Shown piece after piece: positions 18,154 to 41,193 of a DNA stretch of 64,000 nucleotides. The position numbers and the translations under genes were made by a program. The stretch comes from Candidatus Forterrea multitransposorum CG_2015-17_Forterrea_25_41. GTDB lineage: Archaea; Iainarchaeota; Iainarchaeia; Iainarchaeales; CSSED10-239. The notes below the pieces were generated by a model. It did not search any database and had not been told where the DNA came from. It was given only the letters and a program-made list of their open reading frames with translations. Positions within the stretch are counted from its first letter, which is position 1, and each line of letters begins with the position of its first letter. The DNA lies in the NCBI GenBank assembly GCA_009392915.1, contig CP045477.1:192001-256000 (forward strand), written 5' to 3'.

Positions 18154-18684
18154 ATGAATAAGTTTCTACATTTATTTAGAAAATTTTCTGCATATATCTT
18201 ATTTATTTCTACTTTACTTTCTTTTATTTTTTCTGAAAATGAATTTTTAAGTATTTTATTTGTATCAATTGCTTTCGTTGCTTTTTTTAAAATAAATATT
18301 TTTGAATTATTTAAAAATAAAAGATATTTATCAAAATTAGAATTATTCTTCTCAATTTTATTATTTGTAAAAGTAATTTTATTATTTGATGTAAATATTT
18401 TTTATAAATATTTAAGTTATTTTTTTGGTTTTTTCTTTTTAATAGTTTATTTTTTATTTTTTTCAAATACACAAAATATTACTACAAATATCTTAGGTGT
18501 TAAGAAAGATAAGGCTTCTCAAGAAGATGATCTTGAAGATTATGACAATTATGAGGATGATTCTCAAGAAGTAGAAGAAGATTCTGATTTTGAGTTAGAA
18601 GATGATTTTGAAGAAGATGAAGATAATTTAGAAGAAGATGAAGATGATTTAGACGAAAATGAGGATATTTCTAAAAAACATTAA
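18154..18684 (+). CDS. Membrane protein with highly acidic C-terminal tail, hypothetical
   Basis: 176-aa ORF; 3-4 TM helices then EDDLEDYDNYEDDSQEVEEDSDFELEDDFEEDEDNLEEDEDDLDENED. Confidence 0.35.
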   Translation: MNKFLHLFRKFSAYILFISTLLSFIFSENEFLSILFVSIAFVAFFKINIFELFKNKRYLSKLELFFSILLFVKVILLFDVNIFYKYLSYFFGFFFLIVYFLFFSNTQNITTNILGVKKDKASQEDDLEDYDNYEDDSQEVEEDSDFELEDDFEEDEDNLEEDEDDLDENEDISKKH

Positions 18685-36384: not shown

Positions 36385-36606
36385 ATGGCTAATATGACTT
36401 TAAGTATACCTGATGATCTTTTAAAAGAATTAAAAAAACACTCTTATATTAAATGGAGTGAAGTTGCAAGAATTGCTTTTGAAGAAAAGGTAAGTGCTTT
36501 AGAAAGAATAGATGTTTTTAAAGAATTTCAAGAAGCTGAAAGAGATTTTAAAGATGGAAAAAGTATTTCTTTAGAACAATTAAAAAAGGAACTTGGTAAA
36601 AAATGA
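36385..36606 (+). CDS. Small ribbon-helix-helix (CopG/antitoxin-like) DNA-binding protein
   Basis: 73-aa ORF, N-term MTLSIPDDLLKELKK beta-strand + helix pattern; stop overlaps start of next gene (ATGA). Confidence 0.4.
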   Translation: MANMTLSIPDDLLKELKKHSYIKWSEVARIAFEEKVSALERIDVFKEFQEAERDFKDGKSISLEQLKKELGKK

Positions 36607-37673
36607 TTGAAGAAGAAATTGTAAATTTAATTTCAAAGATTTATGAAAAAAACCAAAGTGTTGTATCTATTTTTAAAGAAAATAATTTTTCTTTACAAAA
36701 GTCATTTTATAATCCTGAAGAAAATATAATTAATCCTATTGTTATTGAAAAAAATCAAAATTTATCATTTTTAGGAGTTGATTCTGGTTTTGTAAATAAA
36801 CAATTTAATTTTGCAAATTTAATTATTATTAAAGAAGCAGGAGCTTTATTTAATTATAAAGATTCAAAACTTTCTTCTGTTAAATATTTTCCAAAAATAT
36901 ATAATATTGCAAAACCATATCTTACAACTTCTTCTTTAGAAATTGAAGAAATTATTTGGAATACTTCTATTCTAAGGCTTAAAAAAGAACTTTCTCTTTC
37001 AAAAAAAATTATGGAATCTGAAAAAGTAAATTTTTCTTTAATAGATGGTTCTATTATTCCTCAATATTTATCTAAACCTTCAAAAGATTCAAAATATTAT
37101 AAAGATTATTCTTTTCTTTTATCCTTATTTTTTTCACTTTATGAAATTTCTAAAAATAAAAAAATATTTTTAGTAGGGTGTGTTGAAGATTCTAGAGCTG
37201 ATAGATTTTTTAATATTTTAAAAAATAATTATTTTAAAGATAAAATAAATTTTGATCTTTCAGATTCTTTTTTAGTATTTTCTCTTCTTTCAAAAAATCA
37301 AAGAACTTGTGTTTTTAGATATACTGATGATTTAAGAGAGCATCCTATCTTAAAAGATTTTCCAAAAGAAATTGTTGATAATTTATATGTTTGTTATTTA
37401 AAGCTTTCAGAAGAGGATTATCCTTTAAGAATAGAATTTATTTATTTTAAAGAATTTGGAATGTCTTTAAAAGAATATACAGATTATATAATTTCAAATA
37501 TTGCGTCTATCTCTTCTTTTAATAAAAGATATATATATCCTGCACCATTAATTGAAGCTGATTTACAGAGTAGACTAAAAATACAAGAAATTGATTTATT
37601 GGTTAGAAATTTTCTTGAAAAAACTAAAAAGTTTGGTCTTAAAGTGCCAAGAAGAGAAGCAAGGTCTTTTTGA
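36603..37673 (+). CDS. Hypothetical protein, possible NurA-like nuclease domain
   Basis: 356-aa ORF translationally coupled to upstream RHH gene; motifs FLGVDSGF, LIDGSIIPQ and GCVEDSRADRF reminiscent of NurA-family acidic motifs; tentative. Confidence 0.3.
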   Translation: MIEEEIVNLISKIYEKNQSVVSIFKENNFSLQKSFYNPEENIINPIVIEKNQNLSFLGVDSGFVNKQFNFANLIIIKEAGALFNYKDSKLSSVKYFPKIYNIAKPYLTTSSLEIEEIIWNTSILRLKKELSLSKKIMESEKVNFSLIDGSIIPQYLSKPSKDSKYYKDYSFLLSLFFSLYEISKNKKIFLVGCVEDSRADRFFNILKNNYFKDKINFDLSDSFLVFSLLSKNQRTCVFRYTDDLREHPILKDFPKEIVDNLYVCYLKLSEEDYPLRIEFIYFKEFGMSLKEYTDYIISNIASISSFNKRYIYPAPLIEADLQSRLKIQEIDLLVRNFLEKTKKFGLKVPRREARSF

Positions 37674-37754
37674 TTAATATATTTTAAATTTTCTAAACAT
37701 TTATAAACTTAATGTGTTACTATTTTATTATATTTTAATAATTATTAAAAATAG

Positions 37755-38174
37755 GTGATTAAATTGAAATTAAAAAAATTAAGTTTTATATTTATTTTAT
37801 TTGCTTTTTTAGTTTTTTCTGCAATTAATGTTTCTGCAGATATAACTACTAGAAGTCTTCCAACAATATATAAAGTTACAGGAGATATTGATATTCCTTC
37901 TCCAGGAACTAATTATTATTTTTTAGTAACATCTGTTAAAAACGGAACTACTTTATATCCTGTTTCAAAAACTCAATGTGCACAATATACTGTTTTGAAA
38001 GATCAATTAACTCAAGGTATGTTTATTGGTCCAATATCTTCAGAAGTTACAGGTTATAATAATAAAAGTTTTACTTTAAGATTAATGATACAAAAGTATA
38101 GTAGTCAAAGTTTATGTCAAACTGGAAATAATTCTATTAGTATGACAGGCAATTTAGGAGAACTTTATAGTTAG
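37755..38174 (+). CDS. Small secreted protein, hypothetical
   Basis: 139-aa ORF with signal peptide (FIFILFAFLVFSAINVSA), two Cys; TTG start suggested by ORF track. Confidence 0.4.
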   Translation: MIKLKLKKLSFIFILFAFLVFSAINVSADITTRSLPTIYKVTGDIDIPSPGTNYYFLVTSVKNGTTLYPVSKTQCAQYTVLKDQLTQGMFIGPISSEVTGYNNKSFTLRLMIQKYSSQSLCQTGNNSISMTGNLGELYS

Positions 38175-38191
38175 AGGGGGTTAGTTTATTT

Positions 38192-39550
38192 ATGAAGTCA
38201 AAATTTATATTTTTAATATTTTCTTTAGTTTTATTATCTGGATTTATTTTTTCTGCAACTCCTGCAGATCCACCAGTAAGCAATACAGTTTTTAGTGTTG
38301 ATATCGTGCTTCCAAATCCATATTATGGATTAATTGTTGCAGATGCATCTAATCTTGCAAATCCAGATTCTGTTTCAACTCAATCAATACTTAATAATGC
38401 TGTTGTATTAAGTAAGATTGGGGCTAGTAATCCTGGTGCAAACAAATTTTTAAAAATTAATTCTACTGGAAATTCTCTTGAATGGGCAACTGTTGAAGGT
38501 GGTTCTAGTTCAGGAGATGGTGTAGTTTATACTGCAACAAACCCTATAAGTATTTCAAATAATGTTATAAGTTTAAATGATTCTGGAATAACTACTTTAA
38601 AATTAGCAAATAGTGCTGTTACTTCTGATAAATTATCAGAAAATTCAGTTACAACTACTAAATTAAATAATTCTGCAGTAACTAATACTAAAATTGCAGA
38701 TGGTGCAGTTAATAAAGATAAAATTGCAGTTAAATCTGTAGATCATGCAAGACTTGAAGTTTATCCTTTAGATAAATGTCCTGCTAATAATGCAACTATA
38801 ATTTATAGAAATAATAGATTAGAATGGTCAAATTCTATTGAATGTGGATCTGACATGTTTATTACAGGGGATATTTCTTCTACAAGAACACAAACTTATT
38901 ATCCAGCTCCATTTAATCAATGTGTAAAAGATGTAACTCACACTGTATCAGGAACTTCTTGTACAGGTGCATCTTGTCTTGAAGAATGGAGTCTTTTTAG
39001 AAGTGGAGGAAGTAATGCTGTTAATAATACTGTAAACAATATTAATGGTACAAGATCTGTTACTTTTAATGCTTCTGAAAATAATTTATATGCTTCAAGT
39101 TATGATATAAGATATAATTTATCTCAACCATCAACAGGGAAATCTGCAACTAGAATTAGAAATAGTAGTTATAATGGTTTTAATGCAATTTCTAATGAAG
39201 AAAATACTTGTGCTCCAGTAGTTCCAAGTTCTTTAAATGTTTTAAGATTTCCATCTGATGGATGTATTGATTATTTTGAAGTTAAAGCATTAGTTAGTTG
39301 TGTTGGTTCTTGTAATTATGTAATGTATGTAGATAATCTTCCTCATTCAGAAGGTTCATTTACTGGTACTCAAACAATTACTGAGAATGTATATGTTTCA
39401 GACATAATACATAATAATCCTAAAGTGAAATTTAAGATTACAAATACAGGCCCTGCTGGACTTGTAGGTCTTGAAAGAATTACACCTGAGGGTACACTTC
39501 AAATTACACTTCCACAAATGGTTGATGGACTTCTTTGTTCACAAAATTAA
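38192..39550 (+). CDS. Secreted protein with phage-tail-fibre-type short repeats and Cys-rich C-terminal domain
   Basis: 452-aa ORF; signal peptide; aa ~120-185 TTLKLANSAVTSDKLSENSVTTTKLNNSAVTNTKIADGAVNKDKIA (11-aa T/S..K(L/I)..AVT repeats of the Phage_fiber_2 kind); 12 Cys in C-terminal half. Confidence 0.55.
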   Translation: MKSKFIFLIFSLVLLSGFIFSATPADPPVSNTVFSVDIVLPNPYYGLIVADASNLANPDSVSTQSILNNAVVLSKIGASNPGANKFLKINSTGNSLEWATVEGGSSSGDGVVYTATNPISISNNVISLNDSGITTLKLANSAVTSDKLSENSVTTTKLNNSAVTNTKIADGAVNKDKIAVKSVDHARLEVYPLDKCPANNATIIYRNNRLEWSNSIECGSDMFITGDISSTRTQTYYPAPFNQCVKDVTHTVSGTSCTGASCLEEWSLFRSGGSNAVNNTVNNINGTRSVTFNASENNLYASSYDIRYNLSQPSTGKSATRIRNSSYNGFNAISNEENTCAPVVPSSLNVLRFPSDGCIDYFEVKALVSCVGSCNYVMYVDNLPHSEGSFTGTQTITENVYVSDIIHNNPKVKFKITNTGPAGLVGLERITPEGTLQITLPQMVDGLLCSQN

Positions 39551-39852
39551 GATTAATTTCTTAATTTCTTTTTCTTTTTTTTATTTTTTTTTCTTAATTA
39601 AATACCTTTTTAAATAGTTAGGTGTATATTATATCTAAATAATATATTTATTTTTAAGGTTATTAAGATATAAAAAGATCTAATCTCTTTAATAACAAAT
39701 TTTTATATCTTTTTTAAAAAAATATATTACTTTCATGTAGTTGTTTAAAAACTACATAACTTGGTTTGATTTTCAAACCAAAAAAACTATTTCTTATGGG
39801 AAATTTAAACCGAAGCTCTTTTAATACTTTCATGACATTATCATGATATATT

Positions 39853-40317
39853 ATGACACAAAATGACAATATCACAAAACAGATATTTTTAGAAAAGTTA
39901 TTAAAACAAGATACCAAAGAGCTGGGTTTGAATGATCTTATTCAGATCCAAGAGAAGTTTAACGATCCGTTGATACTTTCTGTAATATTACATCAACTTT
40001 TAGAAGAAAGAAAAAGAACAAACGAGATATTAAAAGATCTTTATGAAAAGTATGACTCTTTACAATTTTCTATTAAGAATAGTAAAGAATCTAGTAATTT
40101 AAATCAAGATCAAGATACAATTAATATCTTACCAGAAATAGATGATAAGATAATTTCTTTTATAAGAGCAAATCAAAAAGTTGATGCAGAACAAGTACAG
40201 GAAGCATTTAATTATAAAGGATCAAATGCAGCTTCTCAAAGACTTAATAGACTAGTAAAAGAAGGATACTTACGAAAAGTTCAAGCAGGAAGAAAGGTAT
40301 ACTTTATTGTAAAATGA
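39853..40317 (+). CDS. Winged-helix transcriptional regulator (MarR/TrmB-like C-terminal wHTH)
   Basis: 154-aa ORF; C-term QVQEAFNYKGSNAASQRLNRLVKEGYLRKVQAGRKVYFIVK. Confidence 0.45.
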   Translation: MTQNDNITKQIFLEKLLKQDTKELGLNDLIQIQEKFNDPLILSVILHQLLEERKRTNEILKDLYEKYDSLQFSIKNSKESSNLNQDQDTINILPEIDDKIISFIRANQKVDAEQVQEAFNYKGSNAASQRLNRLVKEGYLRKVQAGRKVYFIVK

Positions 40318-40481
40318 TTTTTCCCCTTAAAAATCATTTCCTTTAAAAAACCCCTTTAATATAGAAAAACTGTAAAAAACCCCTTTTTTACATTTTTTCA
40401 AAATTTATACCTTTTTTCCTTCTTTTAAAAATAAGTTTTTGTCTTTTATTTTAGTCATTTAATTTCCCTCTAAAAAACTTT

Positions 40482-40690
40482 AAAAAAGATTGTAAGGAAA
40501 ACTTTTTTGTTTCTTTCCTTCTTCTTTTCTGCCCTTTAATTATAAAAATACTTATTAAAAAAAAGATTGTAAGGAAAACTTTTTTGTTTCTTTCCTTCTT
40601 CTTTTCTGCCCTTTATTAAAAAATACTTATTAAAAAAAAGATTGTAAGGAAAACTTTTTTGTTTCTTTCCTTCTTCTTTTCTGCCCTTTA
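40482..40690. repeat. Three tandem direct repeats (~75 bp unit) upstream of the giant-protein gene cluster
   Basis: AAAAAAGATTGTAAGGAAAACTTTTTTGTTTCTTTCCTTCTTCTTTTCTGCCCTTTA core repeated at 40482, 40559 and 40633 with short variable linkers (period 77 and 74 nt). Confidence 0.85.
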
Positions 40691-40857
40691 TTTTTAACTT
40701 AAAAAACTAAAAAAACTATTTTTTTTAATTTTACAACTCTTTTTAAATATTTTGTATATATAGATTTAATACTAATGAAATTGCTTTTTAACCTATTAAG
40801 CAATCAATTTAGCTACATTATAATTTTATATTAAAAAGAAGGAGTTGACTTAAAAAT

Positions 40858-41193
40858 ATGAAACTAGAAAAAATTGGTGCATTTGCTTTTCTTGGTGGTA
40901 TCTTAATTTCAATTATTTTTGGACTTATTTACAATATTAACCATCCAGTATGGCTTTCAACTGTTTTAATTATTTTAGGATTAGTTGTTGGTCTTTTAAA
41001 CATTGAAGATAAAAACATATCTCTTTTCTTAATTGCATCCATTACATTTATTGCAACTAGTAACTCAATAAATGCAATACCTGTTATAGGAGATGTATTA
41101 AGAGGAGTTTTAGTTAATTTAGTATACTTTGTAGCTCCAGCTGCATTAGTAGTTTCAATTGTTGCAATTATTAGAGTTTCAAACTCTAAATAA
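40858..41193 (+). CDS. Small membrane protein (3 TM helices), hypothetical
   Basis: 111-aa hydrophobic ORF with AAGGAG RBS; preferred over the overlapping antisense ORF 40929-41228. Confidence 0.45.
   Translation: MKLEKIGAFAFLGGILISIIFGLIYNINHPVWLSTVLIILGLVVGLLNIEDKNISLFLIASITFIATSNSINAIPVIGDVLRGVLVNLVYFVAPAALVVSIVAIIRVSNSK

Follow-up and report, generated by a model that had tools for sequence, protein, structure and literature searches.

Tandem repeats downstream of an archaeal winged-helix gene are one part of a larger conserved element that extends into its coding sequence

Three near-perfect direct repeats of about 75 bp lie at 40482-40690 of a 64,000-nucleotide stretch of the genome of Candidatus Forterrea multitransposorum (contig CP045477.1; the whole stretch is referred to here as the window), a DPANN archaeon of the Iainarchaeota/Diapherotrites ('Candidatus Ainarchaeum') whose genome has a GC content of 24% and is rich in small repeats. 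The array follows the gene for a winged helix-turn-helix (wHTH) protein, and the question which this locus raises is what such an array does there; the original prediction had offered iterated binding sites for the wHTH regulator, an expansion/contraction switch controlling the locus, or a non-coding RNA. Comparison with the corresponding loci of relatives (given below by their L numbers) shows that the repeats are one part of a larger conserved element which extends into the coding sequence of the wHTH gene, and which was overlooked in the original prediction. The reading that we favour, with moderate confidence, is that the wHTH mRNA would have a structured 3' domain, whose terminal module the array repeats three times in tandem.

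What the comparisons establish, throughout the clade, is a helix formed by the end of the wHTH open reading frame (ORF) and its downstream flank, C-rich boxes in the loops, and a pyrimidine motif after the helix. In the low-GC clade to which the window belongs the motif sits at the 3' foot of a local hairpin of its own (module B), and it is this module which has been repeatedly amplified in tandem. The parts of the element in the window are as follows.

39853-40317, + strand: wHTH gene, encoding 154 amino acids (aa), with 54 homologs and 77 species loci, mostly from Iainarchaeota/Diapherotrites
40283-40302, + strand: 5' arm of helix 1, inside the ORF, AAGCAGGAAGAAAGGTATAC, covering the codons Q-A-G-R-K-V-Y and recognised as an inverted repeat, by duplex energy and by covariation
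40312-40339, + strand: hairpin AAAUGAUUUUU-CCCCUU-AAAAAUCAUUU, with the stop codon (40315-40317) in its stem and a C-box as its loop, found in both the minimum free energy and the centroid structures
40341-40395, + strand: 29-bp tandem unit with AAAAAACCCCTTT boxes, the second box being the CCCC loop of the hairpin UGUAAAAAA-CCCC-UUUUUUACA (40371-40392)
40406-40424, + strand: 3' arm of helix 1 (motif A), TATACCTTTTTTCCTTCTT, whose CTGCC tail is lost in this sub-clade
40482-40558, + strand: B unit 1, with a hairpin at 40484-40528, an unpaired CTGCC at 40529-40533 and a 20-nt linker
40559-40633, + strand: B unit 2, with a hairpin at 40561-40605, CTGCC at 40606-40610 and an 18-nt linker
40634-40697, + strand: B unit 3, with a hairpin at 40636-40680 and CTGCC at 40681-40685, followed by unique flank
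40517-40533, also 40594-40610 and 40669-40685, + strand: conserved 17-mer CCTTCTTCTTTTCTGCC, the AT-rich counterpart of the phylum-wide CCTCCTTTGCC

The array itself was well described at the outset. Tandem Repeats Finder (TRF) delimits it at 40482-40697, with a period of 75, 2.8 copies and 95% matches, and its score of 404 is the highest in the window; repeat finding places the copy starts at 40482, 40559 and 40634, at spacings of 77 and 75. The 57-nt core quoted in the original prediction is exact in all three copies at 40482-40690, and a 53-nt core occurs exactly three times in the window and in none of 100 dinucleotide shuffles. The linkers between units measure 20 and 18 nt and are distinguished by a 2-nt indel, and the ORF list of the window contains no frame of at least 40 aa covering the array. 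The two AAAAAACCCCTTT boxes noticed further upstream are likewise real (40345-40357 and 40374-40386); they form the 29-bp tandem unit, present in about two copies in the window, and a third CCCC lies at 40323-40326. Of the flanks that were proposed, the wHTH regulator on one side is correct, but the giant genes on the other do not adjoin the array directly, as an ORF for a 111-aa membrane protein (40858-41193) intervenes, 170 bp downstream of the repeats.

The evidence which carries the main finding comes from the helix that joins the end of the wHTH ORF to its flank. In the window, the helix-1 duplex has an energy of -28.1 kcal/mol, compared with -14.7 +/- 2.8 kcal/mol for shuffled sequences, none of 200 being as good. 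The whole helix-1 domain (40270-40435) reaches -36.7 kcal/mol, with a z score of -6.3 on the + strand and -2.9 on the - strand, and folds as a three-way junction, with CCCC as the loop of both inner hairpins and the stop codon within the stem of one of them. The duplex recurs in 12 AT-rich species at -18 to -31 kcal/mol, against -12 to -19 kcal/mol for their shuffles. When codon-aligned constructs from the AT-rich species were submitted to RNAalifold, 13 pairs were recovered, three of them with double changes at synonymous codon positions, such that AAG to AAA in the coding arm is matched by C to T in the flank, and GTA to GTT or GTG by T to A or C. The distant orthologs of higher GC content behave similarly (z of -3 or below in 16 of 30, energies down to -58 kcal/mol), whereas the same test of ORF end against flank on 24 other genes of the window, carried out as a control, gave z scores with a median of about 0.

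In the GC-rich species the last 27 or so codons (FKEGHLRKxQSGRKVLYLAR) pair with the flank in four segments, and across the clade the part of the ORF that is engaged in the helix comprises the last 20-27 codons. An alignment of 21 GC-rich species gives 38 pairs which are 84% paired, compared with 36-57% in slid controls; double changes were found in 13 of the 38 pairs, a number reached by 2 of 500 shuffles, and in 32 double-change cells, a number reached by none of 500. The covariation score of 0.205 (0.156 in shuffles, 0 of 500 as high) lies above every shuffle and every slid control. Pairs are thus kept by compensatory changes across species, which is the behaviour of a cis-acting structured RNA. 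Codon usage in the coding arm is also restricted: synonymous diversity at conserved residues amounts to 0.82 of the maximum immediately before the helix arm and to 0.59 within it, where certain codons are nearly or wholly fixed (GGG in 27 of 27, CAT in 24 of 26 and GCA in 22 of 26). The end of the wHTH ORF is therefore under a dual constraint, coding and structural, a point of some relevance to genome annotation. In nine loci (L048, L055, L058, L063, L064, L066, L077, L078 and L081) the ORF runs on through the loop and the 3' arm, and these extensions give the protein a C-terminus rich in Pro, Thr, His and Gln, e.g., TPNHPQKQSPL. Because some ORFs continue through the helix in this way, it is the RNA-level element that is conserved and not the position of the stop codon.

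The repeated unit of the window belongs to the same element. A B module, recognised by CCTTCTTCTTTTCTGCC or a close variant preceded by a complementary purine-rich segment, follows the wHTH gene in every relative whose wHTH protein is at least about 58% identical to that of the window, whilst L095, at 52% identity, has motif A only. MAFFT and RNAalifold proved unsuitable for these units, which have loops of unequal length, and a table anchored on CTGCC was used instead. All 16 distinct variants that were folded form a hairpin whose stem closes at, or within 1 nt of, the unpaired CTGCC; offsets 1-12 of the table are paired almost everywhere, and compensatory pairs are found at offsets 7, 8, 11, 12 and 13, examples being AAAAGAG/CTCTTTT in L013 and L092 and GGTG/CACC in L089. 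An additional AACAT/ATGTT stem is present in L084, and the loops of the variants measure between about 5 and more than 20 nt. The suggestion of a non-coding RNA thus holds in part, in that the unit behaves as a structured RNA module, with a hairpin, compensatory changes and an invariant CTGCC through 16 variants. Two further pairings were considered and set aside. Conservation of CTGCC through pairing with the GCAG of the Q-A-G codons was rejected, since L013 and L095 have Ser codons at that place and yet keep the motif, and pairing of the B 3' arm with the upstream V-K-E-G codons, as seen for the second motif copy of the GC-rich species, was not significant in the AT-rich clade.

The unpaired parts of the element are conserved as well. 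The pyrimidine motif that follows the helix reads CCTCCTTTGCC in the GC-rich species and CTTCTTTTCTGCC in the window, and ends in GCC. Of 65 distant species, 45 have it exactly or nearly so and 16 have it twice, and an exact 11-mer of it is found in 40 loci. In the GC-rich species the first copy forms the start of the 3' arm and the second lies after the helix with its CCUCC in an internal loop. Intermediates towards the form in the window exist in L095 (CTCTTTTTTGCC) and L092 (CTCTTTTCTGCC), and the apical-loop box of the GC-rich species, CTCCCAACCCCCAC, has its counterpart in the AACCCCTTT boxes of the window. Both motif and architecture are kept across species of 29-59% GC. A segment that might mimic the 3' end of 16S rRNA, CACCUCCU, occurs in some species, the fetched loci including no 16S end.

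That these features concern the mRNA strand is suggested by the pattern of wobble pairs. On this strand G.U is tolerated and A.C avoided: the counts are 33 versus 2 among the RNAalifold pairs of the AT-rich clade and 24 versus 3 in its local alignments, 74 versus 43 (p = 0.005) over all helices of the GC-rich alignment, and 33 versus 5 in the well-aligned helices P0 and P1 of the latter. The G.U excess and the fold statistics together favour the mRNA (+) strand. The placement of oligo-T tracts bears on the end of the transcript. In 20 of 40 GC-rich loci the last motif is followed, at no more than 30 nt, by a tract of at least five T residues (T5+), where about 5 such loci would be expected from local density, and 33 of the 40 have no such tract between the stop codon and the motif. 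As archaeal RNA polymerase terminates at oligo-T tracts, this placement would put the element in the 3' untranslated region (3'UTR), with the motif near the transcript end. The corresponding feature of the window is the following.

40691-40726, + strand: oligo-T runs T5 (40691-40695) and T8 (40719-40726), a candidate transcript end by analogy with the GC-rich loci, weak in a genome of 24% GC

A bacterial type of intrinsic terminator does not describe the unit, its stem being A/U- and purine/pyrimidine-rich and followed by the conserved CUGCC, not by a U-run.

The element is tied to the wHTH gene and not to whatever lies downstream of it. Even with three mismatches allowed, the 17-mer CCTTCTTCTTTTCTGCC has only its three matches in the window, and the fetched loci of relatives contain the motif nowhere but after the wHTH gene. 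When metagenomes were scanned with the motif and its CTTA tail, 13 hits were obtained; a wHTH ortholog precedes each of the seven genuine ones, and the other six are chance matches inside coding sequences of unrelated organisms. A covariance model built from the 21 species matches only at the 3' ends of wHTH genes in 674 kb. The 17-mer matches in viral contigs were dismissed as 30 chance hits, the sole double hit (L104) being a GC-rich coding repeat. Control of the giant-gene cluster by the repeats is not supported, as the element stays with the wHTH gene when a ribosomal L16/L10e gene (L089), an inverted gene (L088) or, in distant species, unrelated genes on either strand lie downstream. Searches of Rfam identified only tRNAs in the window, with nothing but noise (E of 0.5 or above) in a permissive scan of 40200-40900, and only tRNAs in ten GC-rich loci. 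With no match in Rfam and no prior description found in the literature, the element is previously undescribed, and it is conserved throughout the archaeal phylum Iainarchaeota (DPANN).

The number of B units differs between strains and species, from one to at least four, with two or three in the species of the window, so that the idea of an expanding and contracting array is borne out; within two species the copy number is polymorphic. Loci of the same species were obtained by look-ups with the exact protein, in assemblies from JGI, ENA and NCBI made with MEGAHIT or SPAdes, and exact unit counts are uncertain as these are short-read assemblies.

Window, L001 and L003: 3 units, identical
L002 and L007: 2 units
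L004 and L005: 3 units, with differing T/A single-nucleotide polymorphism (SNP) patterns among the copies
L005: in addition to its 3 units, the 29-bp unit grown to about 5 copies (L005 1958-2160)
L006: at least 2 units, the contig end falling inside the array
L085: 3 diverged units
L009 and L142: 2 units
L139: 2 units, versus 1 in L140 and L141, which encode an identical wHTH protein
L144: 86% identity, a 71-bp version of its own in at least 4 perfect copies, after which the contig ends

Most species carry a single unit. Where there are several, the units within one genome are identical, and between species they differ mainly in the loop, which implies that amplification is recurrent or that the copies evolve in concert. 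It had been foreseen that the repeat might be an artefact of assembly, through collapsed or duplicated reads. Contigs do often break at the array, as in L006 and in L144, where the copy number cannot be fixed; in metagenomic and metagenome-assembled contigs of Iainarchaeota the element is a recurrent breakpoint, with L006, L008, L012 and L144 all ending inside or beside it. However, seven independent assemblies, from different samples and by different assemblers, carry the array with consistent flanks and distinct SNP patterns, and the diverged tandem copies of relatives such as L085 and L142 cannot come from mis-assembly; we regard an artefact as hardly credible.

The wHTH protein and its promoter bear on whether the array is read as DNA or as RNA. 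The protein has no family match in Pfam, in NCBIfam or in a sequence search of the PDB. Its AlphaFold model (predicted local distance difference test score, pLDDT, 70) begins with helices, continues with a long coiled-coil helix and ends in a winged helix, and Foldseek returns generic wHTH proteins of the ArsR/MarR type, the centromere-binding AspA being marginally first (E = 3e-4). The promoter has the following layout.

39810-39852, + strand: wHTH promoter, with a TFB-recognition element (BRE)/TATA-like sequence CCGAAGCTCTTTTAATA (39810-39826) and two TCATGA palindromes (39830-39835 and 39841-39846), abutting the ATG

This arrangement, CGAAAAGTATTTAAATA-TCATGATAcTATCATGATA-nnnn-ATG, with TCATGA-N5-TCATGA 11 nt apart, recurs in nearly all of about 70 species loci. 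A promoter that abuts the start codon points to a leaderless mRNA, and the TCATGA pair is a probable operator for autorepression. Upstream of it, at 39665-39783, are three near-perfect palindromes (AAGATATAAAAAGATCTTTTTATATCTT, ATGTAGTTGTTTAAAAACTACAT and TTGGTTTGATTTTCAAACCAA) which could terminate the 452-aa gene or serve as additional regulatory sites.

It had been proposed that the repeats are themselves iterated sites for the wHTH protein, and a DNA-level role of this kind, as iterons, operators or a centromere-like site acting on chromosome organisation or on transcription of the neighbours, has some appeal: direct repeats with internal inverted repeats adjoin the gene for a coiled-coil wHTH DNA-binding protein, the best structural match of that protein is AspA, and a spacing of 75-77 bp amounts to about seven helical turns. 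We nevertheless consider it unlikely. The conserved operator candidate of the promoter is a different sequence, TCATGA, which the 75-bp unit lacks; since, in addition, the arms of the dyad covary at a spacing that is not fixed but varies from about 5 to more than 20 nt, which is ill-suited to a dimeric site, the repeats are unlikely to be DNA sites of the wHTH protein. The AspA match is marginal among generic ArsR/MarR matches, a single unit is all that most species have, no ParA-type gene adjoins the locus, and the larger inverted repeat has a coding arm with compensatory synonymous changes and a G.U bias. A function upstream of other genes, either as a leader or control region of the 111-aa membrane gene and the giant surface-protein genes or as a series of minus-strand small RNA (sRNA) genes, one per unit, is suggested by the position of the array before the 111-aa ORF and by the minus-strand unit, which consists of an AT-rich box, a purine-rich hairpin and T8. 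It is however at variance with the constant association with the wHTH gene whatever gene follows, with the wobble and fold statistics, and, for minus-strand RNAs, with the lack of a conserved promoter-like box at a fixed distance across species, and we judge it highly improbable. Masking of the 111-aa gene's Shine-Dalgarno sequence by the pyrimidine tract, a related idea, was abandoned as the complementarity is not conserved in relatives. A replication origin with origin recognition boxes (ORB) was also thought unlikely: there is no skew change at the locus and no adjacent orc1/cdc6, and the complementarity to the ORF would be left unexplained. Little more probable than a leader is that the repeats have no function at all and represent an AT-rich stretch prone to slippage, or an old inverted partial duplication maintained by gene conversion, with a drifting copy number. 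The identity of the copies within genomes, the polymorphism in their number, the expansion of the neighbouring 29-bp unit and the repeat-rich genome of 24% GC would fit this. Against it are the retention of motif and architecture over 29-59% GC, the compensatory changes and the lowered synonymous diversity; arms of 13-45 bp with indels are moreover poor substrates for gene conversion, and the amplified units are exactly those with the conserved motifs. We thus think it improbable, if less so than a leader.

Of the readings other than the favoured one, we give the most weight, whilst still thinking it rather doubtful, to a trans-acting RNA, in which the 3' domain or the B array would be released or separately transcribed as an sRNA or sponge, its motif, with an anti-Shine-Dalgarno-like CCUCC/CCUUC, titrating a protein or pairing with purine-rich ribosome-binding regions (targets such as GGCAAAGGAGG or GGCAGAAAAG). 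3'UTR-derived sRNAs usually have a short conserved single-stranded motif beside a terminator-like T-tract, the helix leaves the motif unexplained, the amplified units are motif carriers, and an analogue with variable repeats exists in RsaC of S. aureus (PMC6765141). However, neither the window, searched with up to 3 mismatches, nor about 500 kb of related loci yielded a complementary target, there is no sign of processing or of a separate promoter, and the helix binds the domain physically to the coding sequence.

The favoured reading, three tandem copies of the terminal module of a structured 3' domain, has points against it which should also be considered. The helix alone does not explain the exact conservation of the pyrimidine motif, and the search just described did not reveal a partner complementary to it. 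Helix P2 of the GC-rich alignment departs from the wobble pattern (A.C 27 versus G.U 15), probably through misalignment, and the G.U excess in helix 1 could partly reflect a C-to-T drift, under an AT mutational bias, of a non-coding arm that faces a coding one. The wobble counts of the B hairpin (9 versus 13) are uninformative on strand, and a single B unit is barely more stable than its shuffles (z of -1.3 to -1.7); owing to this marginal stability the case for the B hairpin rests on the comparison of species and not on energy. The conserved coding arm contributes part of each score of the covariance model. Runs of T5-T6 which in the window come after the stop codon but before the 3' arm of the helix could end archaeal transcription early, though such runs are common at 24% GC. 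Finally, the strand, the ends and the processing of the transcript are all inferred from sequence.

If the favoured reading is correct, the wHTH gene would be transcribed from its autorepressed promoter as a leaderless mRNA which reads through the 3' domain. The helix and the hairpins would shape the 3' end of the mRNA and its stability and would sequester the end of the ORF, whilst a reader acting in trans, be it protein or RNA, would dock on the unpaired pyrimidine motif and perhaps on the C-boxes. How many such sites a transcript offers would then depend on its count of B units, which would thereby tune the expression of the regulator, with an effect that could go in either direction. More tentatively, and as a proposal that we think could well prove wrong, the locus may represent a phylum-wide RNA element that presents single-stranded C/U-rich motifs (CCUCCUUUGCC and the CCCAACCCCC loop box) to a dedicated reader, with an array of variable copy number in one clade; it would be an archaeal counterpart of multivalent sponge or 3'UTR-derived RNAs, or else the RNA partner of the wHTH protein.

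The surroundings of the wHTH gene are variable and give no clear functional hint. In the AT-rich clade the gene is often near NurA (36603-37673 in the window), and in two distant species it is near a HerA-like DUF87 ATPase (L042 4591-5886; L043 2447-3745), hinting at a link to genes of DNA-end processing. The NurA gene upstream, together with the names that homologs carry, also assigns the organism to the Iainarchaeota/Diapherotrites. When strain L004 (3899-8729) is compared with 36603-39550 of the window, its gene content is larger by a ParE-toxin/NUDIX gene and two small ORFs, placed between the ribbon-helix-helix (RHH) gene, NurA and the 452-aa gene, and in L019 (4547-7138) the gene downstream of the element holds an intein with a LAGLIDADG endonuclease domain. 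The giant ORFs of the window (41363-63900; 2671, 559, 2323 and 1867 aa) carry CarboxypepD_reg, bMG3 and Big_1 Ig-like domains, the 559-aa protein having a weak pilin-like N-terminus, and are probably surface proteins typical of DPANN archaea. Elsewhere in the window, a 21-bp in-frame tandem repeat, GAAGATGATTTAGAAGAAGAT, is present in 3.5 copies at 18598-18670 (TRF score 104) and encodes an acidic repeat in a 176-aa ORF (18154-18684).

A tandem repeat alone would be of modest interest; this one led to a phylum-wide, coding-overlapping, RNA-like element with an exactly conserved motif that is unexplained. Post-transcriptional control is little known in the DPANN archaea, uncultivated organisms with reduced genomes, and the locus offers a concrete candidate that can be tested. 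Should the motif have a specific reader, the element would constitute a new class of archaeal regulatory RNA, and nature would already have set up a dosage experiment for it in the series of 1, 2, 3 and at least 4 units.

Several known systems bear a resemblance to this element, and others could be set aside. A clustered regularly interspaced short palindromic repeats (CRISPR) array was excluded, as the 'spacers' are only 18-20 nt long and nearly identical and there are no cas genes among the neighbours. The sopC site of F, which lies downstream of sopB, and the AspA site of pNOB8 are likewise direct repeats with internal dyads beside the gene for a small DNA-binding protein, to which, in the case of AspA, the wHTH protein has a weak structural similarity; here, in contrast, the operator candidate differs, the spacing of the arms is variable, there is mostly a single unit and the element enters the ORF. 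Repetitive extragenic palindromes and bacterial interspersed mosaic elements (REP/BIME) are enterobacterial stabilisers of mRNA 3' ends which are dispersed in hundreds of copies per genome. They too are hairpin units, often in tandem, in 3' intergenic positions and with a copy number that varies between strains, but the present element accompanies a single gene only and is conserved throughout a phylum. A dispersed repeat of the REP/BIME type, or one resembling a miniature inverted-repeat transposable element (MITE), was rejected, there being no other copy in the 64 kb examined of the 663-kb genome or in the flanks of relatives, and only this locus among the metagenome matches.

ToxI, the RNA of a type III toxin-antitoxin system, consists of tandem non-coding repeats, tens of nucleotides in length, upstream of a gene, and in this the array is similar. 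Here, however, the downstream 111-aa membrane protein has no RNase signature, the element persists where the 111-aa gene is missing, and most relatives have one unit; a ToxIN-like system was accordingly rejected, the 111-aa protein having no family matches and its linkage being broken in L088 and L089. The omega-RNAs of TnpB and IscB are guide or scaffold RNAs whose sequence overlaps their partner protein's ORF at its 3' end. A conserved RNA structure which starts in the 3' end of a coding gene and continues into the flank is common to both, but there is here no nuclease, no transposon ends and no variable guide segment, and the protein is a wHTH protein of 154 aa. RsaC of S. aureus (PMC6765141) is an RNA domain of an mRNA 3' end that combines a conserved structure with a repeat region varying between isolates, and it has a short, conserved, pyrimidine-rich single-stranded motif near its terminator, all of which recalls the present element. 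RsaC is bacterial, and its processing and targets were shown experimentally, whereas this element is from a DPANN archaeon, has a domain that pairs with coding sequence, and is known from sequence alone. CsrB and RsmZ are independent sRNA genes whose GGA motifs, displayed in hairpin loops, bind CsrA. The B units differ from these in that the motif lies 3' of the stem and the RNA would be attached to the mRNA, but they share with them a series of tandem stem-loops, each presenting the same short motif, whose number varies between species.

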